Below, piece after piece: positions 16,944-36,604 of a stretch of 58,308 nt of DNA. The DNA comes from a virus (Duplodnaviria > Heunggongvirae > Uroviricota > Caudoviricetes). Numbering within the stretch: position 1 is the stretch's first letter; each line of letters begins with the position of its first letter. Position numbers and translations under genes: made by a program. The stretch lies in IMG/VR virus record IMGVR_UViG_2778261696_000003. One strand, 5' to 3'. The notes beneath the pieces were generated by a model. The model was given only the letters and a program-made list of their open reading frames with translations, did no database searches and was not told where the DNA came from.

Positions 16944-19920
16944 TATTTAGCTCCTTTGCCACACCTAATAACAGTTCCAGCAATCCGTCACCATTCATCA
17001 GTGATGCGGCAGCGGCCTCTTTGTCATGATACAACTGAAGAGCCATAGAGAATACTTCCGTTGCTGACGTTTTGGAAATAGTCGGTGATTTCTGCCGAAT
17101 TTTCCCGGTGTTACTTACTGAGGCTGGCGGGTATACCTTCGCCATATAAATATTACTCAATCGAGATCTGAAGCACCATTCAGGCTTGCCACGCCCACCG
17201 ATATTAACGAAAGATGGCTTATCCCCTTCAACATTGGCCTTCAGGAATGACCGGGCTTTCTCTAACAAACCAGGGTTACTGTACTCAAGATGATGACCCA
17301 GCTCGTGCCACAGTGCACTTGCATTTTCATCGTTCAAATTGACAGCAACAACACCATTAAGATTTGCATATGCCCTTCCCTGGTGGTGAACCACCTTTGA
17401 TAAGGTCGATATTTTCCCGCCGGTCAGGCGATAAATATCAGCAAGTTCCTTGCGCAGGTCTATCCCACCACTCTGTCCAGCGCGGGCTTCTTCCACTTCT
17501 TCCGTGATAAAAGAGTCGGCCCACTCAAGAGCTTTTTCTTCAGATACGGATGAGTTGGCTATCGCACTATTCATGGCAGATAACACTTTCTCGTGGACCG
17601 AACCCATACTTCGCTGATTCATTTGCCAGCGTGTCTGCGGGTTATATGAGAATCGCTTAAGTAGTTGGTCAAGATGCTCAAGTTCTTCTTCGCTGACATA
17701 CTTTTTAGCCTCACCAATAATGCCGGGGAGAATATTGCCGTTAGGATTAAACGCTCGCGAAAGGAAGAGTTTCAGCGCCCCCATGCCCTCCGATGCTTCA
17801 ATATCACCAATAACACGGTTAACAATGGCCGCACTCTTCGGATTAGCATCCGCCAACGCTCTGGCTACGATTTGCAGGGACGATACGACCTCACGCTGCA
17901 TATCAGTCCTGATCTCATCAATAAACTCTGGCGTTATGCCGTGCTCTTTAAGGATATCCCTGCCTTCCGCCGTTACCCCATCGATATCACCGACATGTTT
18001 ATTAACCTGACTTTGCAATGCCTTAAATGCCTTCAGAATTCCACGGGCATCATCAGCTTTACTAACGGCCTTCCTGAATGCTGGCAAGAAGTCAGAGTTA
18101 ACCTCATTTTGTTGATCGGCCCACTGAATGGAGGCTTCTTTCATCTCGTCCAGAGTCAGATCACCCAACGCGGTATGGTCTGTGAATATGAGCGACAACC
18201 TCTGAACCATTTCTGCCAATGGTGATGCCGAATGCGCCGCGCTAAGGAATGCTTTCACCCTGGTTGGGCGAATGGAAAACCAGTCAATAGCTGGTGGCAT
18301 ATCTCCGTTTTTTATCGCCTGCGCTATCTCGTCAAAGCCATCGCGCCCAAGGGAGGATGCGTGATTTAACAAGCCGCGAAGTAACGAATTGCTGATACCG
18401 AATAATCGGCACCATTTTTTCACGTCGGCAACAGGCATTCGAACAAAATGCGCAAGCACTTGTACAAGCTGTTCATCCTGGGGATCTGTGCGGGAAAGCA
18501 GCCTGATCAGATGAATAATGTCTTTGATGCCGGATGCCCGATGTAATAGCAAACTGGTATACGGAGCAACACCGTTGTAACTACCGCCGGAAACGGACTC
18601 GAAAAGACCGCCGGATATCCCTTGCATGCCTTCGTTTTCCAGTTCCTGAGACACCTGGCGAAGGATATCCTGTAACGACACATCACCACCGCCAAACATA
18701 TCCCCCAGCGCCTGGCCCTGGTGCTGTAACTCATCATTGATACGTTGAGCCATCAATTTAAAGGCGGTGGCCATACGCTTCGCGCTACGGTTATTCGCGA
18801 CGATGAACAACGCGAGCGCTTTCACTTCCGGGGCTGTTTCGCTGAACATATCCCCCTGAGCAATAACATCGATAATATGTTGGCCTGACTCCTTCGATTG
18901 CCTTACCAGGTCTACCGCATCTTTCAATGCCGCCAGCGCCTTTTTATCGAGACTATCCGCTGTCTCAATACCATCAACAATAGTTGTCACAGCCTGCTTG
19001 TGCGCTTCTCCTGATAAAGCCTGCATCTGGACAAAATCATTGGCTGCCGCATTAAGCGCCGTCAGAACATTACGCATATCCGGATCAGGTTCTTCTGCAA
19101 CCATCCTTACCAGGCGCGCATCCTTATATGCCTTGGCAAAGATCGCGTTTTGTATACGGTCTACAAGTTGCCGTGTTGGTCGCCCATCTTCCGTTACAAG
19201 GCCAGCAGCCTGTGTGGCACCAACTTGCGTCATGAATCCGCGAATAAACGCGTCATTACTGCGGCTAAGCAGATCTCCGCTTTCTGATGGGTTAAACAGC
19301 GTCATCATCGCCGGAGTTATGCTGTCAGCATCAACAAAAGCCTTTTCACTGGCTGCCATTTCCTGAAGATCAGAAATATTTGAGTCCTTGGCAAACTGAA
19401 CGCGGTCAACCTTAGTTAACCGGCGGCGCACCAGTACCGGAGCCGCCATTGATTCAACCTTTTCAGGTCGTATGCCGAATTCGGTCGCATGATCAATCAG
19501 GTACTCACGATACCGATCCGCATTGCCGTCCTGATAGGCTTTGATGATCCCCATGGTCCGTCCATTACCTGACTCAACGGCATTGTCCTCACCAATTATC
19601 GGCGCGCCATGGCTGGATAAACCGGAATCGGTAAGCTGGGCAGGACGCAAATCCTTGGATATCTGGTTGACCTGAAGAAGACTGGATGCGCGGGTCCGGT
19701 CGCGCGGCTGAAGTTCCTGGGGATAGTCAGGGTTAATTTTCCCGTCCAGAGTATTGGATACCAAAAGAGCTGAGGCATCGACGATATCAAACGCTGTTTT
19801 TACCTCGTCTCCCTTCGCTGTCACCACATACGAAACCCGCCCGTAATTGGGCAGGTTTTTTAGCAGCTCGATCAGCGTTTCTATGCTGGTGGCCATTACC
19901 ACCTGATCGCTTAAGCTCAT
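16933..19920 (-). CDS. ddrB: DdrB-like protein, 995 aa (Dar anti-restriction operon)
   Basis: Position after darA-ddrA in a tightly packed operon; synteny with P1 darA operon. Confidence 0.5.
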   Translation of the reverse strand: MSLSDQVVMATSIETLIELLKNLPNYGRVSYVVTAKGDEVKTAFDIVDASALLVSNTLDGKINPDYPQELQPRDRTRASSLLQVNQISKDLRPAQLTDSGLSSHGAPIIGEDNAVESGNGRTMGIIKAYQDGNADRYREYLIDHATEFGIRPEKVESMAAPVLVRRRLTKVDRVQFAKDSNISDLQEMAASEKAFVDADSITPAMMTLFNPSESGDLLSRSNDAFIRGFMTQVGATQAAGLVTEDGRPTRQLVDRIQNAIFAKAYKDARLVRMVAEEPDPDMRNVLTALNAAANDFVQMQALSGEAHKQAVTTIVDGIETADSLDKKALAALKDAVDLVRQSKESGQHIIDVIAQGDMFSETAPEVKALALFIVANNRSAKRMATAFKLMAQRINDELQHQGQALGDMFGGGDVSLQDILRQVSQELENEGMQGISGGLFESVSGGSYNGVAPYTSLLLHRASGIKDIIHLIRLLSRTDPQDEQLVQVLAHFVRMPVADVKKWCRLFGISNSLLRGLLNHASSLGRDGFDEIAQAIKNGDMPPAIDWFSIRPTRVKAFLSAAHSASPLAEMVQRLSLIFTDHTALGDLTLDEMKEASIQWADQQNEVNSDFLPAFRKAVSKADDARGILKAFKALQSQVNKHVGDIDGVTAEGRDILKEHGITPEFIDEIRTDMQREVVSSLQIVARALADANPKSAAIVNRVIGDIEASEGMGALKLFLSRAFNPNGNILPGIIGEAKKYVSEEELEHLDQLLKRFSYNPQTRWQMNQRSMGSVHEKVLSAMNSAIANSSVSEEKALEWADSFITEEVEEARAGQSGGIDLRKELADIYRLTGGKISTLSKVVHHQGRAYANLNGVVAVNLNDENASALWHELGHHLEYSNPGLLEKARSFLKANVEGDKPSFVNIGGRGKPEWCFRSRLSNIYMAKVYPPASVSNTGKIRQKSPTISKTSATEVFSMALQLYHDKEAAAASLMNGDGLLELLLGVAKELNNAD

Positions 19921-19932
19921 CCCTGTTACGCC

Positions 19933-20298
19933 TTACTCTGCCTCTTTAATGTTGGCGGCTATCCATGCCGCCGTGTGCTGTTTAACCTGGTCCAGATCGA
20001 TGTATGTGCCAACATATTGACTCAAGTCCTGCAACGTACCGATAAATGCATCGGTGCTCTGATCGACGAATTTATCAGCCAGGAAATCAGCAACCAGTTT
20101 TGGCACACCATCATGTACCGAAGGTTGTTTTTCCTCGCCACTACTGCCGCCGGACACACCGTACCCCATCTGTTGCATGATCTGGTCAATTTCATCGCTG
20201 ATATCCAGCAACTCCATGCCACTCGCGGTAGCCGCTTTGGACATCAGAGCATCCAACTTATCGCTGAGATCCATTAACTCAATAGCTGATAGTGTCAT
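19933..20298 (-). CDS. ddrA: DdrA-like protein, 121 aa
   Basis: Synteny; 4-bp overlap with darA-like gene. Confidence 0.45.
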   Translation of the reverse strand: MTLSAIELMDLSDKLDALMSKAATASGMELLDISDEIDQIMQQMGYGVSGGSSGEEKQPSVHDGVPKLVADFLADKFVDQSTDAFIGTLQDLSQYVGTYIDLDQVKQHTAAWIAANIKEAE

Positions 20299-22214
20299 GC
20301 CGCTACCCCCGCTTTCTGGATTGCTACCAACAGATCAGCCAGGTGGCGAGCTGCGCCGTTAACCAGCTCTTCGTTTTCCTCAAAACGTCCGGCAGCCTGA
20401 AGGGCTGCAATCGCTTCCCGGACATTGCCCCGGGCGTTACGGATCTCCGCCATGTCAGTGCTTTGTATATCCATCACGTTATTGAGATATTCAATGGCTT
20501 TATTAGCCTCTGCATCTGCTTCGCTAACCGTTTCATCAGGCTGTGCCGGGGCCGGTTCTGGCTGAGTAATCTCACCGACTTCGGCCTGCAATGCATTGAT
20601 CATGCTCTGCACCATTTTCTCGGTGCCAGCGCCCCCAGGAAACGCAATATTGGGGAAAGTTTTTTGAAACTGAGTTTTCAGCATTACGCGGAACTCGTCT
20701 GGTGAGCTGGTGGCCAGCTCCAGAGCTTTTTGTGCATATTTGCCAAACGGACCATTAGTAAGTGTCTTCGCCAGGAAGTCGAAAGAATCCTCGCGAGGCA
20801 ATAACTTCAGGTCGTACTCACTCATTTGCTGATCAGAAAGCGGGGTATCGTAAGTAGCAATGCCGTAGCGTGCATATTCATAATACGGGTCACCTTCATC
20901 AGGGCGCGGCAGAATTGCTTTGTTACCTTCAGGTATTGCGCCAGGGGCCGCCGGACGCATTTGCAAGGCATATCGATATGCACCTACAGAGACTTCTGGT
21001 TCAGGCGAAGAGCTACCGGTATCCTCCGCTGGTTCAGGTTCGACGTTTTCCGGTTTATGTTCTTCTGGTTGGACCAGATATTCCGATACATTACCCGCTT
21101 TGTAGGCTTTAAACAGCTTGCCGATCGCATCTGCCATGTCCACACCCTGTATGGATTTAGCCTTGATCATGTACACGCTGCCATCCGAATCGGTTAACTG
21201 GATATACCCTTCGCCGTCCTCAATGAATTGCTTCATTGATGCTCCATTACTGAGCGTCACTTCCCCGTTCATATGCATACGATTTTTGATACTGGCAAGG
21301 CGATCCGTCAGCGCGCGCGAGTGCCCACCAGTCATCCCCGCTGGATCAATGGTATCGCGCCCACCTGTGCGATTGAGCTGATCAATCTCCGTCTGCAAAC
21401 GCTCATTCTCTTCATAAAGAGAATCCGCTTCCGATGCAACAGCGTTAATTTTCTGCTCCAGATCTACCTTCTGCCCTTCTACCGCTGCCACCTGATCCGC
21501 GAGGTCGCTCATGGCATCCTCTTTCTGGTCACTGTCAGCCTGTAGTTGGGTTATTTCATCAACCAGGGCTTTTTTCTTCTTCTGCGCACGCTGGAATTTT
21601 GCCGAGTTTTTCTCTGCAAGGTTGGCAAGTTTCATGGTGACCTGCGCCAGCGTCATATCACGTCCACTCATCGGAGCAACGGTGTGAGTAACGTCTTTTT
21701 TATTCAGTAAGAACTGGAAAGCAACCAGCGTATCGCTATTGGTGATCCGGTTTTCCGCTGTCGGGCTATGAAACAGAATGCTGATAGTCTGACCATCACT
21801 GAGCGGAATAATGGCTGGCAGGACCGGCAGCCCGTTAACGTTACGTGCCCGGCCAATTTCAGCACCGCCGATCGCGCGCGCGCCGCTCTGGGCCACCTCC
21901 CCCGTTTTATCACTCCCCGCAGAGATTCCGGTACCATTCAGCTTCTGGTTCAATGCCCGGACAAATGCCTGCATGGTCCGGTGTAACTGCAAACGAGTAG
22001 AACTAATCGCCTCCAGTAAATCCGTAGCACACCAGTGGATCGGCGTGTCATAGAAGAACGTAGCCTCGATTTCCTCCAGGGTGTTGGATTCCGTCATCAG
22101 ATAGCGGTCCTCACCGGCCATTAATGCGCGATATTCATCATCAGTCACTGGCGGGGGAAGCACGTCAAGCCCAGGCTTGATCGTCACCCCTTTATTGATA
22201 TTTAACTGTTCCAT
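20295..22214 (-). CDS. darA: DarA-like internal head/anti-restriction protein, 639 aa
   Basis: Synteny and size; coiled-coil-rich sequence. Confidence 0.55.
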   Translation of the reverse strand: MEQLNINKGVTIKPGLDVLPPPVTDDEYRALMAGEDRYLMTESNTLEEIEATFFYDTPIHWCATDLLEAISSTRLQLHRTMQAFVRALNQKLNGTGISAGSDKTGEVAQSGARAIGGAEIGRARNVNGLPVLPAIIPLSDGQTISILFHSPTAENRITNSDTLVAFQFLLNKKDVTHTVAPMSGRDMTLAQVTMKLANLAEKNSAKFQRAQKKKKALVDEITQLQADSDQKEDAMSDLADQVAAVEGQKVDLEQKINAVASEADSLYEENERLQTEIDQLNRTGGRDTIDPAGMTGGHSRALTDRLASIKNRMHMNGEVTLSNGASMKQFIEDGEGYIQLTDSDGSVYMIKAKSIQGVDMADAIGKLFKAYKAGNVSEYLVQPEEHKPENVEPEPAEDTGSSSPEPEVSVGAYRYALQMRPAAPGAIPEGNKAILPRPDEGDPYYEYARYGIATYDTPLSDQQMSEYDLKLLPREDSFDFLAKTLTNGPFGKYAQKALELATSSPDEFRVMLKTQFQKTFPNIAFPGGAGTEKMVQSMINALQAEVGEITQPEPAPAQPDETVSEADAEANKAIEYLNNVMDIQSTDMAEIRNARGNVREAIAALQAAGRFEENEELVNGAARHLADLLVAIQKAGVAA

Positions 22215-22215
22215 G

Positions 22216-22818
22216 TTAATTTCCTGCTTTCAGTTGCTTAAGACGACGTTTGAGTTCGCCATTCCGTGCCTTTTCGTTATTGAGTCGGCCCGTCTCCTTA
22301 TCCAGCTTCGCCCGCAAATCAGTGATCTGCTGTTGATTGAAAGACACCGAATTCTGCGCGGACTTATAAGCGGCAACCACCTGAGCATTCCGCTGTTTTG
22401 CTTCTTGCAGGCGCTGAAAGTTGGATTTAACTGCCGGTTTCTTGTCTACCGGATTGGCAACACGCTTCGCTTTGGCGATCAGTGATTTCTGGAATTTTGC
22501 GGAGTTTTTGCGGGCCGCCTGTCCCATGACGGTACCAAGCGTCTTGATATCCGGCGACTGAGCGTTAGGAATAGCTTTTCCATTCAGTTTCACAGACGAT
22601 ATATCGCCAGTATCGTTTACCTGTATGGCAAGAATTTGTCCGTCGTTAAGAACCAGCTTTGCGGTTTTAACTTTAACGCCATCTTTCGTTGTTGCGCGGT
22701 TGCTGGAGTCAACCTCAATTACCGTAACACCGGTTTTATTGATCGCCGCGATAAGGGATTTCAGCCCCTTTTCATTAACCTGGTCAAAATCGACCGTTGC
22801 ATACTTATTTTTCGTCAT
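22216..22818 (-). CDS. hdf: Hdf-like protein, about 200 aa
   Basis: Second in-frame ATG has AGGA RBS; synteny upstream of darA. Confidence 0.45.
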   Translation of the reverse strand: MTKNKYATVDFDQVNEKGLKSLIAAINKTGVTVIEVDSSNRATTKDGVKVKTAKLVLNDGQILAIQVNDTGDISSVKLNGKAIPNAQSPDIKTLGTVMGQAARKNSAKFQKSLIAKAKRVANPVDKKPAVKSNFQRLQEAKQRNAQVVAAYKSAQNSVSFNQQQITDLRAKLDKETGRLNNEKARNGELKRRLKQLKAGN

Positions 22819-23248
22819 CTGACACATCCTGTGCGAGATTTATTACGTAACTTCTGCGGATTTGCTGAGTAACAGGGAAAATCCGATACAACGGGTTAAT
22901 GAACGAGTCGCCATGCGTAACCATGATGTTGAAATGCCACAGTCGCTCTCCTTTACCCATATATTCAGTGGGTATGTACAACCATTCACTGTTTTCGCCC
23001 TGTTCAGCCGACGTCAGACAACGTTGTTCACCTTCAATCACTGTCGTCGGCTTCTGAACATCGCGGATCCAATATCTGACCGTTGCGCCGCGCAAAAACG
23101 GGAATTTAGACCGGTACTTGAACGGCACCCGGATGAAACCCGGTTTAATTTCCACATCACCAAGTTCTAAATGCGTGATGTCCTTGCGTTTTAGCAAATA
23201 GCGATCGGCTAAGGCTAACGCAAGAACGCATACACCCCAGCCAATCAT
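22805..23248 (-). CDS. lydB: LydB-like antiholin candidate, 147 aa
   Basis: Synteny (lydA-lydB precede the dar genes in P1). Confidence 0.4.
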   Translation of the reverse strand: MIGWGVCVLALALADRYLLKRKDITHLELGDVEIKPGFIRVPFKYRSKFPFLRGATVRYWIRDVQKPTTVIEGEQRCLTSAEQGENSEWLYIPTEYMGKGERLWHFNIMVTHGDSFINPLYRIFPVTQQIRRSYVINLAQDVSDDEK

Positions 23249-23574
23249 TTCCCGCCTCCCTTTTTCACCAAACTTGTAAGAACATTCAGAATGCTATCGA
23301 TATTCACTCGTTTCATCCCTGAAATCACCTCATGACCGTTATTGCTGGCTATCGTTACCATTAAGTACGTAATTGATAACTCCCAGCCCTCGTGTTGCCC
23401 CAATAGGTACGCCACCGCGCCAGCTGTCACTGCAACAAAGATCTCCGTAACCAATCCCAACAAATTGCCAGACTGGCGACCGTCTCGGACATCCATCAGG
23501 AACGTGCCTATCCCACCAATTACTGAAAGCAGGAGCGCAATAGCAACTGGAGCTAATTCCTGTGTGTCAAGCAC
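23245..23574 (-). CDS. lydA: Holin (LydA-like), 109 aa
   Basis: Two or three hydrophobic helices and charged C-terminus (KKGGGK). Confidence 0.5.
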   Translation of the reverse strand: MLDTQELAPVAIALLLSVIGGIGTFLMDVRDGRQSGNLLGLVTEIFVAVTAGAVAYLLGQHEGWELSITYLMVTIASNNGHEVISGMKRVNIDSILNVLTSLVKKGGGK

Positions 23575-23641
23575 AAGTTCCCTCCTACGTTGTCAGGAGG
23601 TAATGGTATGCAAAGTAACTTCTCAACCGGTCATTTGTTGC

Positions 23642-23923
23642 TTAAGAGGCATTTCTATTGAGGTACGAATCGATAATCCTTTGTAACTTTTCAAGAATGA
23701 GCCTGTTATTGATGCTGCAAATAATAGTCACGCAATTCTGAAGACTTTCATCCATACCCTTATATTCCGCGAAATACATGCCTATAAAGCCTGCAAGTAC
23801 GGCAGCAATACACTCGGCCATCAATTGCCTGTATGACGCTTCGTAACGTTTTTCACGAACCCCATTCAGAAACGAATGCACCCCGCCAAGGATGGAGAGG
23901 AGCATTATTGTGAAATCACACAT
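23642..23923 (-). CDS. Holin-like small membrane protein, 93 aa
   Basis: Hydrophobic helices; position upstream of lydA. Confidence 0.4.
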   Translation of the reverse strand: MCDFTIMLLSILGGVHSFLNGVREKRYEASYRQLMAECIAAVLAGFIGMYFAEYKGMDESLQNCVTIICSINNRLILEKLQRIIDSYLNRNAS

Positions 23924-24050
23924 AACTATTTCCTTAATAGTGAATTAAATATCATTGGGAAACGGTATGTACTTTGTGATTTCCACACATACTGGTTTTT
24001 GTTAATTAAAATCCGCAGCTTGCTATAAATAACGATAGTGAGCAGAAAAT

Positions 24051-24350
24051 ATGCTAATAGGCTATGTACGCGTATCAACAAATGAACAAAACACTGCTTT
24101 ACAACGAAACGCTCTTGAAAGCGCAGGATGTGAGCTAATTTTTGAGGACAAGGCGAGTGGAAAAAAGGCTGAACGACCAGAGTGAAAAAGGCTTTTGATA
24201 GGTAAACTCTGGTCGTATGAAAGTTAAATTTGCGTGGGTGCAGCATGCGCTCACTCTTGAGGCATGAACGGTAATCATCTGATAACTTGTAGCTCGATTA
24301 TCCGGACGCACTGGAACCAGTCGATGCTTCCAGCGATCCAGATATTTCAT
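24051..24350 (+). pseudogene. cin: Decayed cin-type serine DNA invertase (Cin/Hin/Gin family) pseudogene
   Basis: Reads [34 protein letters not shown]... then stop at 24183-24185; downstream frames retain recognisable fragments (LVV*KLNLRGCSMRSL versus recalled Cin LVVWKLDRLGRSMKHL). Confidence 0.7.
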
Positions 24351-24358
24351 TAAATGGA

Positions 24359-24769
24359 CTACGCCTCCGGGAACGCTGGCCAATTGACATCTGGTGCAGT
24401 GCTGGTATCCGTTGCGGTCACCGCATCGATATAATCCAGCACAGCGTTAAGACGGGTGGTTTCAGCCTGCGTAAGATTCCGCCCGGCCTGTAATTTCAGT
24501 TGAATAAGACTAATGGAAGCCATTGCGGTATCAATCAGCGACTGTTTTTTCTGTTCAGCGTCAGCTACCAGTTCATCATGAGAACGTTCCGGAGTGGGTG
24601 GCGCAGTAAATCCCCCGTCTGAATACACCCAGCCGATTCCGGGCTGCTCACTGATATCAGAAATATTAATGAGCTGCTGATTATCCGGCACTGTGAATTC
24701 AGCCTCGCCATCCCAGACAATGACATTCACAACCATCCCATTTTCAATAACTGCATATGATGTATTCAT
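24359..24769 (-). CDS. Tail fibre assembly chaperone (U-like), 136 aa
   Basis: Tfa-type C-terminal motifs (QLKLQAGRNLTQAETTRLNAVLDYIDAV...WPAFPE); start ATG overlapping tail fibre stop. Confidence 0.65.
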   Translation of the reverse strand: MNTSYAVIENGMVVNVIVWDGEAEFTVPDNQQLINISDISEQPGIGWVYSDGGFTAPPTPERSHDELVADAEQKKQSLIDTAMASISLIQLKLQAGRNLTQAETTRLNAVLDYIDAVTATDTSTAPDVNWPAFPEA

Positions 24770-27700
24770 TATGCAAACTCCTCGATAATACAAATCCCTG
24801 CAGCGCCTTTCCCGCCCGTCATACTGGTTCCGCTATAACCGGCATCGTATGCACCACCGCCGCCCGAACCATATGCCCGACCGATAACGCCACCGCCAGC
24901 GCCTGCGCGACCACCGCCCCCCCAGAACGATGATCCTCCTTCACCACTGACGCTGATATTTCCGGACTGACCGTCACCTCCATGCCCACCAATAATGCGG
25001 ACATCACCAGTATTCGGCGCGCCTCCATTACCACCGTTCGTGTTTGTGACTCCTACTTTCCCGCCGCCTTCACCGCCAGGGGCTATTACCGTTCCGAACG
25101 AGCTATCACCGCCCTTGAGGCCGTTCGTCGCACCAACACCGCCGCCCCCACCTGCGCCGATAGTGACTGGATAACTATTCTGTGTCGGGGTCATTATTGA
25201 AATTATTGTCCCACCGGCCCCACCGCCAGCACCGAAAAACGTCTCGTTATTGGATGTAGCCTGGCAGCCACCACCTCCGCCACCGCCGCCCGTAATTGTG
25301 ACCCTGATTCGTTTTGTTCCTGGCGTCGGGGTATACGTACCTGATGAAGTGAAAACCCGGGTATTCACCAAACGCCCAACATATCCGCTTGAATCGCTCA
25401 GGCCAAGGTTAGCAGCAGTTAAAGTAATATTTGCAGAACCATCAAACTTAACACCGTTGATAGTGCGTGCAGTCTGTAGTTTCGTTGCGGTTGCGGCATT
25501 ACCGGTAGTGCTCTGATTACCTGCTTTATTCACGCCCGGCAGGTCGATATTGGCACTACCATCGAATGACACTCCGCCTATTGTGCGTGCTGTTTGCAGT
25601 TTTGTTGCAGTTGCAGCATTGCCGGTAGTGCTCTGATTACCTGTTTTATTCACGCCCGGCAGGTCGATATTGGCACTACCATCAAATGACACCCCGCCGA
25701 TTGTGCGTACTGTTTGCAGTTTCGTAGCGGTTGCAGCATTGCCGTTCAAACTACCATTGATGCCGCCAGTAACATTGAGTCCATTACCGATCGTAACAGT
25801 ACCATTGGCATTGTTAATGATAAGCGGCCTTAAATTATTATAGGTTCCCAGGCTGTTACCCGAATTGGTCAACATGAAATATGTGTTTGAACCATCGTTT
25901 CGGATAAAGAATCCGTAGTTTCCGTAGGCAATGCGCAGACCATTCGCCGATTTTGAAATGATCTCACCAGTAGCCGTTAAACCGCCGTTGAGATTTCCTC
26001 CGGTTATTGGTAATGCGCCGACATCCGTGGCGGTCGGTTTAATGTGCGAACTGTAAATTACATATACAGTTCCATCTGTCAGGCCTGTTGGTTTATTCGC
26101 TGTATAAGATGGTGATGTATGAATCGTTACGCTGGCGTTACTGGTATAATCCCACTGAATATTAACACGTGTGGTGTAATTACCTATTTCAACATAAACA
26201 TCATAGGTATCACCGGATGTATTCACCCATGCAAAATTAGTAAATCCAACCGATGTCCGTCGCCATAACGCACCAGTAAGACCTTTTGGATTCCCATTTC
26301 CCGCACGAAGAACAAGTTCAGATATACCAGCCTGCATAGGGGAGTTAACATTATATCCAGAACCACCAATCAGGCTTATGTAAACCACGGAACTGGACTG
26401 TGGCATGGTTACAGTTGCCAGCTTGAACCATCCAGTACCACCACTAAAAGACATTGTTGTTGAGTTGATCGTGCCTATAGACCTTGGAGTTAGCTCAATG
26501 TTTTTAGAACCGTCAAACAACACCCCATTTATAGTTCTAGCGGTTTGTAACTTGGTCGCTGTCGCTGCATTACCGGATGTATTCTGATTACCCGCAACGT
26601 TAACACCAGGTAAATTAATATTCGCAGTACCATCAAAGCTAACTCCGCCGATAGTTCTTGCCGTCTGTAGTTTTGTAGCAGTTGCCGCATTGCCAGTTGT
26701 ATTCTGATTGCCAGTGGCATTCACACCAGGAATGGAGTCCCTTGATGTATATACCTGCGCCCACGCTGACCATGCCGCATCAGTGTGATCTCTTCGGGAG
26801 CGAATGAAAACCGGCGCATGTGCACCGCTCGTACCACTCCAGCCAATAAGCAACTCGCCCTCACCAGCAGCACTCGCACCTTTCATGTGCAATACGTTGC
26901 CATACGCGGTCGGGTAGCTATTGTTGTACGCCTCATACATCTGCAATCCAGTAGAAGCACCTTGTGTTGTATCGGTGAGCGCAGTAACACGCCCTCTGGA
27001 CGCAATTGTTGGTATCGAAATGTTCGCAGAACCATCAAACTTAACACCGTTGATTGTGCGTGCTGTTTGCAGTTTTGTTGCAGTTGCGGCATTACCGGTA
27101 GTGCTCTGATTACCTGCTTTATTCACGCCCGGCAGGTCGATATTGGCACTACCATCAAATGACACCCCGCCGATTGTGCGTACTGTTTGCAGTTTCGTAG
27201 CGGTTGCAGCATTGCCGGTAGTGCTCTGATTACCTGCTTTATTCACGCCCGGCAGGTCGATATTGGCACTACCATCGAACGACACTCCGCCGATTGTGCG
27301 TGCTGTTTGCAGTTTTGTGGCGGTGGATGCATTACCTGTCAAAGATCCACTAAGAGCCACGGCACTAAGAGACTTAACACTTACATCCTGACCCCATCCG
27401 GAAACAACAACCTGACTCCACGCTGCCCAGCTTCCATTAACAACAAAGCGAACGTATATACGTTTTGTGTCGTTGCTGATCAGCGTTTGCATGTTCGCAT
27501 AATCCGAAGCAGAAACTTTGCGAGTCGACTCTACACGGAGCAAAAAGTTACCGTTTACGCCGTCAGGCTTGTTGGTGATATTTGCACCACCTCCAAAGGT
27601 TGGACAATAATAATATTTAATTGCCCCGACATCTGAGCTGATGGTCAGGTTGTTAAGATCAACCGTCTGGTCGCCAATTTTTTCCGGCTCGATGGCTCCT

Positions 27701-29193
27701 GCTATCCCGGCACTGAATGTAGCAGCAGCTGAAAACGCTGTCTTACCTTTGAAAGTCTGTTGAGAACTCCAGGTATTAGCTGTGCTCAACAGGGGGATCT
27801 TTTCGCCGCTGGTTCCGATTTCTCTTAAACCAAGGTATTGGATAACAGCCAGTGTGCTTGTTTTAGCCAGGATATCGCGACCGACTGACGTTAAATCAGT
27901 CTGGGAAACAGTGTCTGTACCGGTAAAGTACGGCAATTTATTTGCGCCTGTCGCAAGACCAGCAAGCGCGGTTAAAGTTGCATCCAGAGGCTGTTTGCCT
28001 GCCAGCGCATTTGTCATTGTTGTCGCAAAGTTCGGGTCATTGCCCAGTGCTGCTGCAAGCTCATTCAGGGTATCAAGAGCTTCAGGTGATGAGCCGACCA
28101 ATGCAGAGATAGCAGCTCTTACATAAGCGGTCGTAGCAATCTGCGTGTTATTCGTACCCTGTGCAGCGGTAGGCGCAGTAGGTATTCCCGTTAATGCAGG
28201 ACTTGCTAAAGGAGCTTTAAGAGCCAGAGCATTGTTGATAGTTGTGCTGAAATTCGGGTCGTTATTGATCGCAGCAGCTATTTCTTTAAGCGTATCCAGA
28301 GTGCCAGGTGCACCGTTGATAAGTGCCGTTATAGCTGCCTTAACAAAGGCTGTATTTGCGATCTGCGTGCTGTTTGTACCTTGCGCTGCCGTCGGCGCGG
28401 TTGGCGTTCCTGTCAGACTCGGGCTTTCTATTGGCGCTTTGGTATCAGCCAGCTCTTTTACAGACTTAACGGCTTTAGGGGTAGCCGCCATTGTTTCGCT
28501 GTCGCTGTTAGTTGCGCTACTGAGCTGAACTAATCCCTTTTGTGTTGTGCTTGCATCCTGCGCCGTATACTTGCTTTTAGCCAGATCGTAGGCTTTTTTA
28601 ACCGCCAGCGAACTTGCAGCGACATCACTTCTGGTACTGGTTACAGAGTCGGAAATTTCAATGCCTATCGCGAGATCGATGCGGTCGGATACATCTATCA
28701 TTTCCTTAGTAATAGCAGATACGCCAGCAGGGATATTCACCGTACAAACAAGCAGTTCTCCATCTCCTAACTGATATGAATCGGTATAGGTTCTGGCAAC
28801 AAATTCAGCCGCATGAATATGTGACGCGGTATTAACCTGATAAGAATCTTCTCCAAGGAGGTATCTTCCCTTCAGCACAATTGCATATTTCTTACCTGCG
28901 CTAAGTGCAAGAGAAATATCCTTACGCTGCTGAATAGTTACCTGGTAGAATTCACCAATATTCACTGACGCCGCGCCAGCGGTTTTATCACCATCCACTG
29001 AGGTGATTAACAGGTTCATCCCACCGCCAGGCTTAGGAAAAAAACCGGCATAAAATCCAGGGTCAACAATTCCCCTGAATTTTCGGTTTAGCGCGGCTGA
29101 CAGATATGGTTCGTGGTATTGCACATCAGCCACCAGAGCCAACGACTCGGGTGATGGGTAAGTAACCGATGTGACAACTGTAACGTCATTCAT
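24769..29193 (-). CDS. Tail fibre protein (S-like), about 1474 aa, with internal sequence repeats and Gly-rich C-terminal domain
   Basis: ATG at 29193 with AAGGA RBS, 12 bp after R-like stop; repeated peptide GNAATATKLQTARTIGGVSFDGSANIDLPGVN; C-terminal GGGGGG-rich region. Confidence 0.8.
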   Translation of the reverse strand: MNDVTVVTSVTYPSPESLALVADVQYHEPYLSAALNRKFRGIVDPGFYAGFFPKPGGGMNLLITSVDGDKTAGAASVNIGEFYQVTIQQRKDISLALSAGKKYAIVLKGRYLLGEDSYQVNTASHIHAAEFVARTYTDSYQLGDGELLVCTVNIPAGVSAITKEMIDVSDRIDLAIGIEISDSVTSTRSDVAASSLAVKKAYDLAKSKYTAQDASTTQKGLVQLSSATNSDSETMAATPKAVKSVKELADTKAPIESPSLTGTPTAPTAAQGTNSTQIANTAFVKAAITALINGAPGTLDTLKEIAAAINNDPNFSTTINNALALKAPLASPALTGIPTAPTAAQGTNNTQIATTAYVRAAISALVGSSPEALDTLNELAAALGNDPNFATTMTNALAGKQPLDATLTALAGLATGANKLPYFTGTDTVSQTDLTSVGRDILAKTSTLAVIQYLGLREIGTSGEKIPLLSTANTWSSQQTFKGKTAFSAAATFSAGIAGAIEPEKIGDQTVDLNNLTISSDVGAIKYYYCPTFGGGANITNKPDGVNGNFLLRVESTRKVSASDYANMQTLISNDTKRIYVRFVVNGSWAAWSQVVVSGWGQDVSVKSLSAVALSGSLTGNASTATKLQTARTIGGVSFDGSANIDLPGVNKAGNQSTTGNAATATKLQTVRTIGGVSFDGSANIDLPGVNKAGNQSTTGNAATATKLQTARTINGVKFDGSANISIPTIASRGRVTALTDTTQGASTGLQMYEAYNNSYPTAYGNVLHMKGASAAGEGELLIGWSGTSGAHAPVFIRSRRDHTDAAWSAWAQVYTSRDSIPGVNATGNQNTTGNAATATKLQTARTIGGVSFDGTANINLPGVNVAGNQNTSGNAATATKLQTARTINGVLFDGSKNIELTPRSIGTINSTTMSFSGGTGWFKLATVTMPQSSSVVYISLIGGSGYNVNSPMQAGISELVLRAGNGNPKGLTGALWRRTSVGFTNFAWVNTSGDTYDVYVEIGNYTTRVNIQWDYTSNASVTIHTSPSYTANKPTGLTDGTVYVIYSSHIKPTATDVGALPITGGNLNGGLTATGEIISKSANGLRIAYGNYGFFIRNDGSNTYFMLTNSGNSLGTYNNLRPLIINNANGTVTIGNGLNVTGGINGSLNGNAATATKLQTVRTIGGVSFDGSANIDLPGVNKTGNQSTTGNAATATKLQTARTIGGVSFDGSANIDLPGVNKAGNQSTTGNAATATKLQTARTINGVKFDGSANITLTAANLGLSDSSGYVGRLVNTRVFTSSGTYTPTPGTKRIRVTITGGGGGGGGCQATSNNETFFGAGGGAGGTIISIMTPTQNSYPVTIGAGGGGGVGATNGLKGGDSSFGTVIAPGGEGGGKVGVTNTNGGNGGAPNTGDVRIIGGHGGDGQSGNISVSGEGGSSFWGGGGRAGAGGGVIGRAYGSGGGGAYDAGYSGTSMTGGKGAAGICIIEEFA
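25430..27390. repeat. Three clusters of tandem 120-bp coding repeats inside the tail fibre gene (about 25430-25790, 26500-26740, 27020-27390)
   Basis: Repeat starts read at 25441/25561/25681, 26507/26627 and 27031/27151/27271, period 120 bp. Confidence 0.7.
27990..28430. repeat. About 219-bp coding repeats (two to three copies) in the tail fibre gene
   Basis: TTTGCGATCTGCGTG... unit recurs near 28133 and 28353; encodes repeated ...AAISALVGSSPEALDTLNELAAA... peptide. Confidence 0.5.
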
Positions 29194-29204
29194 CAAGCAT
29201 ATCC

Positions 29205-29639
29205 TTATGCTGTAGTCGTGTTTATGGCCATAACTGCGGTATATGTTTTGCCCACATACAGCGAGTCTTCCTGGACACAAATAATGGCGATTGGCTTGTT
29301 CTCGTTATCCAGAACAACCAGAGTGTTGAATGGGTAGTTTTTCCCTTTCTGCAACTGGCTTTGATCAAGGTCCATTCGGACAGTAATTATCCCGCCTGAG
29401 TAGGTTGGGACGAGGTTGATGGTGCAAAATTTACTGGTCAGTTCTGCCAGCTCGAAAGCCTTTGGCAGTTCTCCAATCTCATAAGTGCCATCTCCTTTCT
29501 TAGTAACCAGTGAACTGGTACCGAAAACGGCCTTGCTGATTAAAAATCGAGAGCCTTTGTTAATGGACGATTCAGCGCGCCGCTGATAGTAATAGTCCAA
29601 CAACTGACTCTTATAGAGGTTTGTTGAGACGTCAGACAT
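29205..29639 (-). CDS. Tail fibre-associated structural protein (R-like), 144 aa
   Basis: Immediately upstream of tail fibre gene in same operon; synteny with P1 R-S-U. Confidence 0.45.
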   Translation of the reverse strand: MSDVSTNLYKSQLLDYYYQRRAESSINKGSRFLISKAVFGTSSLVTKKGDGTYEIGELPKAFELAELTSKFCTINLVPTYSGGIITVRMDLDQSQLQKGKNYPFNTLVVLDNENKPIAIICVQEDSLYVGKTYTAVMAINTTTA

Positions 29640-29717
29640 GATTTTCCCTAATCAATGTTGTGAAGCCTCATTGTAAGAGAAGTAACTTGTCACCCCGCCC
29701 TGCGGACGGGGTGATTG

Positions 29718-30557
29718 TCAGGCGTCGCTATCCAGCAACAAATCATCTGCGCGTGTGCGATCAAACGTAGGTGTCGCTTTCACAATAGTGCCACCAGGCG
29801 TTGCGGTGATCGGGGCGCTAATCGACGTAACTCCAGTAAGCGAAGTTGTATCCGAAGTTTCAAACCAGCAGTACGCTTTTTCGGTATCAGAAATCTCGTT
29901 CAAAGTGATCATGTCGGCCTGTTCATTCACAACAACCGACAAATAGAGCGTAAGCCCATCAAACACTATATGCAGTGGCAGTAGAGGCTTTACGAACTGA
30001 TTAAACTTTCTGAGAATTTCTTCTGTAATTGCGGACTGATCTATCGTGCCAGTAATACCCATTGTCCGGGCCAGGTCGTTTATGGGAATACTGATCATCC
30101 CTCTGGAAGTCAGAAACATCTCACCGAATGTGCCGCCGGTAGTTTCCAGTGTGCTTTCTGGTATTAGAACTGTGCCATAGGGATGACGTTCAAGGTCCAC
30201 CGGTGCATATATCGGATCCCATAAAACAGAAATACCATTAAATTCGCGGTAAATTGTCTGGTTTATAGGGCGTTCAGTCCCCTTAAAGTGAATCTCATCA
30301 AGCCGCTGTTGTAACAACATCGGAACGGAAGATGAGTTTGAGGTTCTGATAGTAAAGAACTGGCCAAGTTCATTTGTCCTGGTCTCCAGATCCTCCTTGC
30401 TCATGGAAAAAATAGACTTCCGGTTGGTAATTCGCTCCAACCATGGGTCAACAAAGGTGTCCATCATTGACTGAACCAAATCAGCCAATGATTTATAGAG
30501 CAATGACTTTTGCTTAGCTGATGTAAGCCGATTATTAAACCAGGAACGTTGCATCAC
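29718..30557 (-). CDS. Baseplate/tail structural protein, 279 aa
   Basis: Overlapping operon with downstream baseplate-like genes; synteny. Confidence 0.45.
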   Translation of the reverse strand: MMQRSWFNNRLTSAKQKSLLYKSLADLVQSMMDTFVDPWLERITNRKSIFSMSKEDLETRTNELGQFFTIRTSNSSSVPMLLQQRLDEIHFKGTERPINQTIYREFNGISVLWDPIYAPVDLERHPYGTVLIPESTLETTGGTFGEMFLTSRGMISIPINDLARTMGITGTIDQSAITEEILRKFNQFVKPLLPLHIVFDGLTLYLSVVVNEQADMITLNEISDTEKAYCWFETSDTTSLTGVTSISAPITATPGGTIVKATPTFDRTRADDLLLDSDA

Positions 30558-31987
30558 TCCTCCTCATACGAAATATTAAAGGTGGAGTTTTCTGTATCCA
30601 GATAAACGAAATCGTAAAAGCCGTTGGACTCATTCCACTCGACAAATTCCAGATAAAAGTCGCGGAAATAACCCAGCGTTTCGATAAATGCCCAAACGTC
30701 TTTTTTCTTGATCAGGATGTACTTGCCGACACCGTTCGGATCAAAGAAATTTGAGTCGCGCCCAAATTTTGTTTCCAGTGCCGACTTCAACTCATCAGTC
30801 ACGTTCTCAATAGTCAGGCTTGCCGATATCCGCCCGGTGATGGTTATCTTAAATGGTAGTTTTCTGACCTCTTTATAAGAGAATTTCTTGTTCAGTTCAT
30901 TCGGTACCTTCTTAAAGGCAGTCAGGATCATTTCTTCAAGCTCTGACTGGCTTTTATTTGGATGCCATCCTGAAATAAATATCTTATTGATATTCTGAAC
31001 ATTATAAGCACCATCTAATTTCTCTTGCTGGCCTTCGCCCCATGCCTTTACCCAGGACAGCCCCGGGATGTTACGAACCAGAAAATACGTATAGTCCCCG
31101 CCCCATACGACCTGATCATCATAGGCAAGGTAATATTGTGCACGGTTACGTGTGATCTCCGTTGTTTCAGCATCGGTACCTGCGGTTATAGGTGTCGTTG
31201 TCTTAACTGAAATCAAATTAGCTAAATTAGCCGCAGAATCGACAGGCGTCAGGTTTTGGCCAGCAACCAGGGTTATATCGCCGTTGGTGCACCATACCTT
31301 AAGCGTAATTGTCGAACCTTCTGGCGGTATTTGCCCAATTAGCCCATCGCCGAATCGAACCCCCAACTGCTCGGATGGTTTATAAAACTCAACGTAGACC
31401 TGGCTTTTACTACCGGCTAACCGGAACATAGTGCTGGAAGACCACTGCGTGGTCTTACCATCGGTCGTCACGAATACTTCCAGCTTATAGCAGACAGCAG
31501 TAAGAGCCTTTGATAACACGACTTCCAGAAATTCTTTGGCTGCCGTAACGGTATATGTCACCTCCTGGATTTCCAACTGTGCCACTTCTACCGTACCGGT
31601 GCCGTCAACCAACCTGCATACATCCATAGTCATGTAAGGGTACTGGTCGTCAGATATTAAAGGCATGTTTTTGGGGATTACCGCTGGGGCATCTTCACTT
31701 GTGGCGGTGATCTCAATCATCCCCGATGACGGTGTTGGCTTGGTACCAACGTAACTATTCGTTTCTGCCGCTGCCAGGATAGAGGAACGCCGCGTCGCGG
31801 TCGATATAAAGCCTTCAGCCAGCGCCGCATCGGCATACTGAAAGCACCTGTAGACAATCTGGGTAATAAACAATGTCAGCATCGAGACAAATTGAGAGCC
31901 GACAAACTTCGACCAGAATGAATCTTTCTCGACAAGCTCTTCAAACTCTGCACGAATACTGTCTTTAGTCGGTGTTGTTTTACTCAT
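30554..31987 (-). CDS. Baseplate protein (J-like wedge candidate), 477 aa
   Basis: Size and position between sit and tail fibre genes; 4-bp overlaps. Confidence 0.45.
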   Translation of the reverse strand: MSKTTPTKDSIRAEFEELVEKDSFWSKFVGSQFVSMLTLFITQIVYRCFQYADAALAEGFISTATRRSSILAAAETNSYVGTKPTPSSGMIEITATSEDAPAVIPKNMPLISDDQYPYMTMDVCRLVDGTGTVEVAQLEIQEVTYTVTAAKEFLEVVLSKALTAVCYKLEVFVTTDGKTTQWSSSTMFRLAGSKSQVYVEFYKPSEQLGVRFGDGLIGQIPPEGSTITLKVWCTNGDITLVAGQNLTPVDSAANLANLISVKTTTPITAGTDAETTEITRNRAQYYLAYDDQVVWGGDYTYFLVRNIPGLSWVKAWGEGQQEKLDGAYNVQNINKIFISGWHPNKSQSELEEMILTAFKKVPNELNKKFSYKEVRKLPFKITITGRISASLTIENVTDELKSALETKFGRDSNFFDPNGVGKYILIKKKDVWAFIETLGYFRDFYLEFVEWNESNGFYDFVYLDTENSTFNISYEEE

Positions 31988-34909: not shown

Positions 34910-36604
34910 CTATCTGATCAAGGGCGCTGAGAATCTTGTCATTGCCCTCTTTAATTTCGCTGGTCTGCTCCTGAAGTTCCTGAACTGTCCGTTTTTGGGT
35001 GTTAACCTGAACGACATCGGCACTATTTTGCGATTTACGCCTAAAAAAACTTTTCTACGGCTGTTATCGTCATTGCCACGAATCACATCGGCAATAGACT
35101 TTCTGGCACCATTAAGCGATCCACCAACTTCTTTTGATATCCCGCCAAGCTCCTTCCCTGCTGCCCACAATGGACCAGCAACGGCATAACCTAACGCATC
35201 AACGGCACGAGTCTCTGAAGGGTTACCTATGCCTTCAGCTACTTTTGACAGTTTTTTTAATAAACCTGATTCAGCATTTAGACGCTCATCATCCTCTTTG
35301 CGCCTGGCCTTTTCAGCACGTTCAGCACGGGCATCTTCCGCTGCGGCCTTACTCCCTGACTTTCCAATAAAACGACCACGCGCATCGCGTTGGTTTTGGC
35401 TTTTTTGCGCACCGCCTTTTTGATCGAACATTTCGCGAGCGTGTTCGGCTGCTTCGGTCCGTTGTGCCTTTATATCCTCTGGTATAGCCTTCCTGCGTCG
35501 TTTTTTACCCTTTGGTGTAGTTGATTTGGCCTGCTGTTCCTGTTGAGCAATGCCCTCCTGAACTACACGAGAAACGTCCCCTAAATTAAGCCGTTTCATT
35601 GCGTCAACAATAGGGTCTACTGATGGCGCATTGGCCACAAAGTCTGGCCGGGAATTTTCGATTGTTCGATTTAATGCCGACACACTGCGAGATACTGGGT
35701 CAACCGTTGCAACGCGTTCCCCTTTCAAATCACGAGCGAGTTTGACCGTTTCTAACCGCTGTGCTTTAACATCCTCTGTTATTGCCTCTCTTCGTCTATT
35801 TGGGGGATTGTGCGCTGTTGGTGCAGCCTGCTGTTCACGGTTAGTGACTTTGTCCTCCCGTATACGAGAAACGTCCCCTAAATTAAGCCGTTTCATTGCG
35901 TCAACAATAGGGTCTACTGATGGCGCATTGGCCACAAAGTCTGGCCGGGAATTTTCGATTGTTCGATTTAATGCCGACACACTGCGAGATACTGGGTCAA
36001 CCGTTGCAACGCGTTCCCCTTTCAAATCACGAGCGAGTTTGACCGTTTCTAACCGCTGTGCTTTAACATCCTCTGTTATTGCCTCTCTTCGTCTATTTGG
36101 GGGATTGTGCGCTGTTGGTGCAGCCTGCTGTTCACGGTTAGTGACTTTGTCCTCCCGTATACGAGAAACGTCCCCTAAATTAAGCCGTTTNNNNNNNNNN
36201 NNNNNNNNNNNNNNNNNNNNNNNNNNNNNNNNNNNNNNNNNNNNNNNNNNNNNNNNNNNNNNNNNNNNNNNNNNNNNNNNNNNNNNNNNTGTTGGTGCAG
36301 CCTGCTGTTCACGGTTAGTGACTTTGTCCTCCCGTATACGAGAAACGTCCCCTAAATTAAGCCGTTTTATTGCGTCAACAATAGGGTCCACTGATGGCGC
36401 ATTGGTCACAAAGTCAGGACGTGAATTTTCGATTGTGCGATTTAATGCCGACACACTGCGAGATACTGGGTCAACAGTTGCAACTCGTTCCCCTTTCAAA
36501 TCTTCAACAGCTTCCCGGATACCTGCAAGCTCTTCCAGCTCTTTTGCACTGGCGGTTTCAACTGTCCTTATAACATCGTCAATGTTGGCGTTTTTTCTTT
36601 CCAT
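34910..36604 (-). CDS. Repeat-containing tape-measure-like protein (N-terminal module preceding sit), at least 564 aa; interrupted by assembly gap
   Basis: ORF contains X run from the N gap; 99-aa peptide unit repeated at least three times; basic coiled-coil C-terminal region. Confidence 0.5.
   Translation of the reverse strand: MERKNANIDDVIRTVETASAKELEELAGIREAVEDLKGERVATVDPVSRSVSALNRTIENSRPDFVTNAPSVDPIVDAIKRLNLGDVSRIREDKVTNREQQAAPTXXXXXXXXXXXXXXXXXXXXXXXXXXXXXXXXXKRLNLGDVSRIREDKVTNREQQAAPTAHNPPNRRREAITEDVKAQRLETVKLARDLKGERVATVDPVSRSVSALNRTIENSRPDFVANAPSVDPIVDAMKRLNLGDVSRIREDKVTNREQQAAPTAHNPPNRRREAITEDVKAQRLETVKLARDLKGERVATVDPVSRSVSALNRTIENSRPDFVANAPSVDPIVDAMKRLNLGDVSRVVQEGIAQQEQQAKSTTPKGKKRRRKAIPEDIKAQRTEAAEHAREMFDQKGGAQKSQNQRDARGRFIGKSGSKAAAEDARAERAEKARRKEDDERLNAESGLLKKLSKVAEGIGNPSETRAVDALGYAVAGPLWAAGKELGGISKEVGGSLNGARKSIADVIRGNDDNSRRKVFLGVNRKIVPMSFRLTPKNGQFRNFRSRPAKLKRAMTRFSAPLIR
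35500..36500. repeat. Tandem array of 297-bp (99-codon) repeats, at least 3.3 copies, copy number unresolved because of gap
   Basis: Unit starts at 35568, 35865 and 36162 (period 297); partial copy resumes after the N run. Confidence 0.8.
36191..36289. other. Assembly gap (99 N) inside the tandem repeat array
   Basis: Run of n characters in the sequence. Confidence 0.99.

Follow-up and report, generated by a model that had tools for sequence, protein, structure and literature searches.

A truncated cin remnant beside a single tail fibre gene in a P1-like phage-plasmid of Escherichia coli

The annotated record of P1 places the invertase gene cin on the plus strand, ending in the crossover site cixL, followed by a 4.2-kb C segment (Sv′, U′, U, Sv), with cixR inside the tail fibre gene S. 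The series lydC-cin-Sv′-U′-U-S is a hypervariable region of P1-like phage-plasmids (PMC9603915), and in D6-like plasmids the tail fibre inversion region is the most divergent one (PMC6799933). For the plasmid pSvP1, Venturini et al. 2019 (Sci Rep; PMC6906374) described a 'partial invertase orf' and considered that the switch and the flexibility of host range were presumably lost. The remnant that is the subject of this report is already known, both as a partial recombinase pseudogene in RefSeq and through the same conclusion reached by Venturini et al. for pSvP1. Its anatomy, its distribution and its probable origin are described below.

Setting of the locus and the P1 backbone

The window, meaning the whole stretch of 58,308 nucleotides that was analysed, is part of a P1-like phage-plasmid of E. 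coli. Positions 18150-30800 are 100% identical over 12,651 nt to pEC12-3 (NZ_CP060935.1), a sequenced plasmid of 91 kb that matches the window at 99.4-100% identity over almost the whole length. Positions 1-2316 are not colinear with pEC12-3, the sole match there being 78-987 at 96%. As judged from these alignments, the window comes from a sister plasmid of pEC12-3 that differs in a variable region, which adjoins a gene annotated on the pEC12-3 map as encoding a Ref family protein.

Repeats were also found elsewhere in the window. A perfect (100%) tandem duplication with a period of 297 nt and 2.1 copies occupies 35567-36190; the blastn match to pEC12-3 splits at 36190/36290, adjoining this repeat, and PGAP annotates the corresponding large gene of pEC12-3 as frameshifted or partial, which suggests either variation in repeat copy number or assembly collapse in this gene. 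Arrays of ~21-31-nt repeats with the motif CAGCACACAT (ATGTGTGCTG on the other strand) are located at 52641-52721 and 53749-53853, flanking the position of repA; we take them to resemble the RepA iterons of P1 (incA/incC) and to be normal for a plasmid replicon.

The cin remnant is flanked on both sides by minus-strand genes: the P1 lysis genes lydB, lydA and lydC upstream, and a chaperone gene, the long fibre gene S, R, gene 16 and bplA, in that order, downstream. The features of the locus are as follows.

23929-23955, plus strand: putative homologue of the predicted P1 promoter P2cin (P1 annotation transferred at a gapless offset of +22890)
23980-24012, plus strand: putative homologue of the predicted P1 promoter P1cin (P1 annotation transferred at the same gapless offset, +22890)
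24051-24185, plus strand: cin remnant orf of 44 codons with the catalytic Ser motif YVRVSTNEQ, ending at TGA (tblastn, Pfam, PGAP)
24051-24172, plus strand: cin block A, the P1-type 5′ end, cin nt 1-122 (alignment to P1)
24069-24140, plus strand: sequence identical to the P1 recombinational enhancer inside cin (P1 annotation 31678-31749; 100% identity)
24173-24255, plus strand: cin block B, old, diverged and broken, about cin nt 123-217 (gapped blastn and alignment)
24256-24283 (28 nt), no strand: deletion junction of uncertain origin, without a convincing DNA match to cin or tfa′
24284-24387, plus strand: 3′ stump of a convergent tfa′/U′-like gene, reduced to its final ~35-42 codons and interrupted by in-frame stops and a +5-nt frameshift (tblastn, DNA alignments)
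24359-24772, minus strand: chaperone gene tfa (U-like), 137 aa, apparently intact (Pfam Caudo_TAP, E=3e-22, profile positions 25-131 of 131)
24769-29193, minus strand: single tail fibre gene S, 1474 aa, with a P1-type constant part and a long non-P1 variable part (blastn, Pfam, PGAP CDS in pEC12-3)
27820-27845, plus strand: orphan cixR inside S, 26/26 identical to P1 cixR

When the window was aligned by blastn to P1 cin and the C segment, a check that the first-pass annotation of this DNA had recommended, homology extended from 23000 to 24255 and resumed at 27746, in a stretch that includes cixR; the comparison yielded no counterpart of cin beyond nt 217, of cixL, of Sv′ or of U′. From 27746 to 30500 the window is 95.5% identical to the Sc-R-16 region of P1, and 23900-24149 is 100% P1. 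A consensus scan of 23850-24850 for promoters and terminators gave no plus-strand terminator-like site, and its promoter-like sites were not above those of shuffled sequence.

Anatomy of the cin remnant and the tfa′ stump

The observation that set off from the sequence alone, a near-perfect serine-invertase N-terminus of 44 codons with the catalytic Ser region followed by a stop, is borne out: 43 of the 44 residues are the same as in the N-terminus of P1 Cin, the exception being G44E, and residues 1-49 of P1 Cin align by tblastn at 91.8% identity (E=5e-25). The Pfam Resolvase match of the orf (E=3e-11) spans profile positions 2-51 of 145 only, compared with positions 2-144 plus HTH_7 at residues 138-181 for P1 Cin, and neither tblastn nor Pfam found an HTH_7 counterpart in the window. 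Thus the Ser motif is present but a complete resolvase-type catalytic domain (~140 aa) is not, and the reading frame, which in an intact invertase would run for ~186 codons, is closed by a stop at codon 45 and damaged further on by a 12-nt gap, frameshifts and a second stop. PGAP annotates the same span of pEC12-3 as a partial 'recombinase family protein' without its C-terminus, and in a group of ~93% identity RefSeq/PGAP adds 'frameshifted; internal stop' to the recombinase pseudogene.

At the nucleotide level, 24040-24157 is identical to P1 at 118/118 positions, and over 24040-24172 there are two differences in 133 aligned positions (24158 and 24161), both synonymous and specific to the lineage of the window. 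The TGA at 24183-24185 that creates the 44-codon orf is TTA in related plasmids, which here agree with P1, so it is a late change that is likewise specific to this lineage. By nucleotide homology, which reaches cin nt ~217, and by its conserved position directly after lydC and the cin promoters as in P1, the remnant can be assigned as a homologue of P1 cin and, as the first-pass annotation had it, a pseudogene.

Gapped blastn extends the cin homology through block B to window position 24255, about cin nt 217, and tblastn in another frame reads 24206-24259 as TLVV*KLNLRGCSMRSLL against Cin 57-74 TLVVWKLDRLGRSMRHLV; the Cin-like fragments previously noticed in other frames were recovered in this way, up to ~24255. 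Relative to P1, block B has ~20 substitutions between 24173 and 24249, a 12-nt gap near 24190, one deletion and one insertion of a single nt each, and a TGG codon changed to TGA at 24218-24220, and about a quarter of the aligned positions in its ~80 nt are different. Divergence from P1 has the form of a step, rising from 3 of 958 nt (23200-24157) to 21 substitutions in 95 nt (Fisher p=2e-20), where there are 13 indel columns besides. The first few differences of block B are synonymous third-position changes, weakly suggestive of a once-functional diverged allele. Block B is ~25% diverged from every known cin, which exceeds what simple recent decay would give. A distant blastn search of phages, plasmids and E. 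coli genomes with 24150-24300 found no closer intact invertase above ~73%, and no chromosomal pin-type gene of the E. coli genomes matched this sequence at E<=1e-5. The remnant is therefore best placed in the P1-family cin lineage, and an origin of block B from pin, gin or min is unsupported by these searches.

The range 24051-24350 had initially been read as cin throughout; cin-derived sequence continues to ~24255, but 24284-24387 is the stump of a convergent tfa′. Between them lies the 28-nt junction, of which a part, together with the first bases of the stump, is missing from pSvP1 and pCARB35 (18 nt in all). A candidate match of Cin codons 84-90 to 24263-24290 (GAGGCATGAAC against GAGGCATTAAC), ~62% by eye over 26 nt, was indistinguishable from chance or from tfa′ and was rejected.

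The stump reads DYPDALEPVDASSDPDI against DYLDALELVDTSSAPDIEWPTPP. With the intact Tfa′ of a chromosomal module (L006) as tblastn query, amino acids 107-137 match window 24257-24349 with 58% identity over 31 aa (E=1e-5), and amino acids 136-148, the terminal 13, match 24349-24387 after the frameshift. The assignment agrees with DNA alignments to the stump of an e14-like prophage (L004), to the intact gene of a D6-like plasmid (L005) and to the intact gene of L006. Matches in chromosomal prophages begin at ~24282, under two convergent tail fibre assembly genes, and the stump overlaps the 3′ end of the surviving tfa as in intact modules. From these comparisons 24284-24387 is identified as a homologue of the C-terminus of a Caudo_TAP-type Tfa′, convergent with and overlapping tfa, and not as an intact gene.

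A single fibre gene and a single crossover site

The first-pass annotation had counted one fibre gene and one assembly chaperone after cin, and these are S (24769-29193) and tfa (24359-24772), both on the minus strand, the ATG of tfa overlapping the stop codon of S. In the plasmids, as in each of the chromosomal prophages that were examined, PGAP flags tfa (24359-24709) as 'incomplete; missing N-terminus'. A broken chaperone was considered on account of this flag and rejected: the chromosomal copies have the same flag, the beginning of the orf coincides with the S stop codon, and the Caudo_TAP profile is nearly full. Probably PGAP misannotates this short subtype of Tfa systematically.

The variable part of S, on the 3′ side of the P1-like stretch 27746-30500 with respect to the gene, has patchy similarity to P1 only. 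Pfam identifies Phage_fiber_2, Gp34_trimer and Gly_rich_2 in the protein, and the C-terminal domain is glycine-rich. S also contains, on the minus strand, two arrays of a 120-nt (40-aa) repeat that encodes GNQSTTGNAATATKLQTARTIGGVSFDGSANIDLPGVNKA-type units, at 25306-25845 and 26899-27438 (also 26497-26796); repeats match at 87-89% within each array, and one stretch of 300 nt is 93% identical between the arrays. Such arrays could allow variation of fibre length by unequal recombination.

The search for cix sites around the fibre genes that had been recommended at the outset found one exact cixR without a partner in the window or the full plasmid. This cixR is the only match in the window with <=8 mismatches in 26 (0 expected by chance), and no second site within that limit was detected in the window or in the full 91-kb pEC12-3. 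Scanning with up to 9 mismatches, and for half-sites, produced chance-level matches only (e.g., 25882, 9 mismatches) in the window and the whole plasmid. The inverted repeats flanking the fibre genes are pairs of 14-15 nt, with none longer. No other serine invertase or Cin homologue was found in the window or in full pEC12-3, of which the only other annotated site-specific recombinase is a Cre-like tyrosine enzyme. The alternative fibre end Sv′ is absent, and of a second chaperone there is only the ~100-nt frameshifted tfa′ stump. Hence neither of two attributes of a P1-type C segment, a pair of inverted crossover sites and an Sv′ with a U′ in the opposite orientation, is present. All of the 44 PLSDB records that cover the locus have it in one colinear piece, with no inverted isomer among these assemblies.

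Because there is one cixR, no Cin homologue, no Sv′ and no flanking inverted repeats, Cin-type switching of this fibre is, on present sequence evidence, structurally impossible. The earlier surmise that host-range switching had been lost is upheld by the single cixR, the missing Sv′, the reduction of tfa′ to a stump and the lack of a serine invertase. It is extremely improbable, but conceivable, that the retained cis elements are still in use, namely the cin promoters, which are identical to those of P1, the Fis-type enhancer, and the orphan cixR where the constant and variable parts of S meet. A Pin-family invertase supplied in trans by a resident prophage would then recombine S with pix/cix sites of chromosomal e14-like prophages whose fibre modules are homologous. 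If so, fibre ends would be exchanged between replicons instead of being switched within one molecule.

Distribution, origin and related systems

The remnant was compared among the window, pSvP1 and pCARB35_01. Common to all three are the changes at 24173-24181, a gap of ~10-12 nt that varies among them only in the length of an A-run, the TGG to TGA change at 24218-24220, the 1-nt insertion and the tfa′ stump junction. Since these lesions and the junction are shared, the cin pseudogene is evidently older than the split of the three lineages. The pairwise differences by block are as follows.

Block B, diverged cin (24173-24278): window and pSvP1, 12.3%; window and pCARB35, 12.3%; pSvP1 and pCARB35, 0.9%
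Block C, tfa′ stump (24298-24380): window and pSvP1, 2.4%; window and pCARB35, 9.8%; pSvP1 and pCARB35, 8.5%

Thus pSvP1 is a mosaic, with a block B like that of pCARB35 and a tfa′ stump like that of the window, and this block-wise mosaicism indicates that the plasmids exchange segments by homologous recombination. The 5′ block varies by 1.5-6% between lineages, as does the flanking backbone.

An 851-nt query from the locus matched 44 PLSDB plasmids with at least 80% coverage in a single colinear piece; among the matches listed, 12 have 99.6-100% identity and were isolated from humans, poultry, ducks and cattle. The arrangement was found in 73 of 5,426 complete E. coli genomes with each of two probes (24150-24800 and 24150-24300). 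As a share of the replicons that match the 24150-24300 probe, it amounts to 44 of 257 PLSDB records (~17%) and 73 of 185 in the complete E. coli genomes (39%). A large and successful subgroup of P1-like phage-plasmids would seem to have given up Cin-mediated host-range switching and to have one fixed, non-P1 fibre, which is relevant to host-range prediction for these elements, as they can carry resistance genes. The truncation is real and common, and matters little beyond correct annotation.

The explanation that we prefer, with a probability of roughly 0.9, is that an ancestor with the layout of P1 lost cin through a deletion or illegitimate join, after which the leftovers decayed and the fibre was fixed. 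We infer the following order of events. The ancestor would have had lydC, cin on the plus strand ending in cixL, an invertible segment with Sv′ and tfa′ facing tfa and Sv, cixR, and the constant region of S. Either a deletion or an illegitimate join to the same effect, made upon acquisition of the glycine-rich fibre module, would then have removed cin nt ~218-561 (~344 nt, ~60% of the gene), cixL, Sv′ and ~105 codons of tfa′, all but the last ~35-42. Such a single loss would have taken the recombinase, one of the two sites and the alternative fibre end together, and would consequently have left the surviving fibre gene fixed in one orientation. The remnants, no longer functional, would later have been altered by small indels and by point mutations, among them the one that gave the TGA at codon 45. 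The 5′ ~120 nt have probably been kept P1-like by homologous exchange with the majority of P1-type plasmids, those with intact cin, up to ~24172 where the similarity ends, and block B may reflect either long neutral drift or descent from a diverged allele. One internal deletion is the simplest account because the 5′ end of cin and the 3′ end of tfa′ are on the same strand in P1-type order, and because the junctions are not at cix sites, the event would not have been mediated by Cin. None of the P1-like plasmids sampled combines this exact fibre module with tfa′, Sv′ and cin all intact, so the ancestral state is a reconstruction; more distant intact versions of the tfa/tfa′ module exist in a D6-like plasmid and an e14-like prophage. 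The locus would be a clear small example of how recombination with intact relatives can keep part of a pseudogene fresh as the rest decays.

The probability that the truncation is an artefact of sequencing or assembly and that the real genome has an intact cin is as good as nil. The homopolymer A-runs at the 10-12-nt gap, of which the length varies between records, are of the kind that such an artefact would involve, but what is missing is >2 kb and not a single base, and among the plasmids listed, 12 that differ in host and country of origin agree with the 851-nt query at 99.6-100% identity; with the same junction in 44 PLSDB records and 73 complete E. coli genomes, the truncation is not a sequencing error. 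Gradual decay of P1 cin in place, by point mutations only and with neither a large deletion nor a mosaic history, would account for the stops, frameshifts and many non-synonymous changes of block B, but it is very improbable given that ~344 nt of cin, cixL, Sv′ and most of tfa′ are physically absent and that divergence from P1 is stepped (3/958, then 21/95, p=2e-20) and not uniform. The first-pass description of cin as decaying is accurate with respect to the stops and frameshifts and has to be amended in that the main event would be a deletion, followed by a non-uniform, mosaic decay. It is about as improbable that the remnant is kept for a function, such as antisense transcription into tfa and S, or interaction of its peptide or of the orphan cixR with Pin-type invertases of the host. 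The identity to P1 of the 5′ block with its annotated promoters and enhancer, the 26/26 conservation of cixR and the commonness of the arrangement would fit this proposal, but cixR is within coding sequence and would be conserved anyway, the variation of the 5′ block between lineages (1.5-6%), being like that of the backbone, points to no special constraint, recombination would explain the identity step, and in the consensus scans promoter-like sites were no commoner than in shuffled sequence and no terminator-like site appeared on the plus strand.

A tentative variant, rather doubtful but equally compatible with the end state and with the same functional consequence, is a one-step import, in which an Sv-tfa module that already had only a tfa′ stump would have come from an e14-like chromosomal prophage and become fused to cin at nt ~217 by an illegitimate event; the P1-like lineage would then never have possessed a full invertible segment with this type of module. 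Chromosomal e14-like prophages do have this tfa and this fibre with its glycine-rich domain at 86-94% identity, in some of them (L004, L007) tfa′ is likewise reduced to a stump, and an intact version of the exact module was not found in any P1-like plasmid. Against this, the chromosomal stumps have other upstream junctions, adjoining a ClpP-like gene, the collinear order and shared strand of the cin 5′ and tfa′ 3′ ends are what a simple internal deletion predicts, and D6-like plasmids show that the family includes intact tfa/tfa′ modules of this type. Deletion from an ancestor with the P1 layout is therefore retained as the preferred explanation.

Compared with the cin/C-segment system of P1, the window has the remnant in the same position after lydC, identical or nearly identical promoters, ribosome-binding site, enhancer and first ~120 nt of cin, an identical cixR in S, and the constant part of S, R and gene 16 at 95.5% identity. 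It differs in having no Cin residues from ~73 onward, no cixL, no Sv′ and no more than the end of U′, so that it is not invertible, and in having a variable fibre part with a glycine-rich C-terminal domain and a 137-aa Tfa. The plasmid pSvP1 (NZ_MN510446.1) has the same remnant, junction and shared lesions, with 94% identity to the window over 23950-24800 and 88% over 24040-24380; it differs by having 18 nt fewer at the junction, a 10-nt gap (12 nt in the window) and TTA in place of TGA, and by being recombinant in block B.

The e14 Pin/P-segment modules of chromosomal prophages are homologous to the window in tfa, tfa′ and the glycine-rich end of the fibre (DNA identity 86-94%), and decayed invertases and tfa′ stumps are also frequent there. 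In two e14-like prophages (L004 and L007, at ~4845-6095), an invertase pseudogene with an internal stop and an inserted ClpP-like gene is accompanied by a 137-nt frameshifted tfa′ stump, adjoining the same glycine-rich fibre and tfa module; with this independent decay, loss of the inversion system beside this module seems to be recurrent. Unlike the window, e14-type modules resemble Mu gin in that the strand of the invertase relative to the segment is reversed, and the cin remnant matches no chromosomal invertase at E<=1e-5, the closest sequences being P1-family cin alleles. D6-like plasmid prophages (e.g., pF719-4; PMC6799933) belong to the same P1 supergroup and have tfa and tfa′ genes that converge and overlap, with 83% identity to the stump and the tfa 3′ end of the window. 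They differ from the window in having an intact invertase gene, Sv′, tfa′, tfa and S, and in the reversed orientation of the invertase gene.
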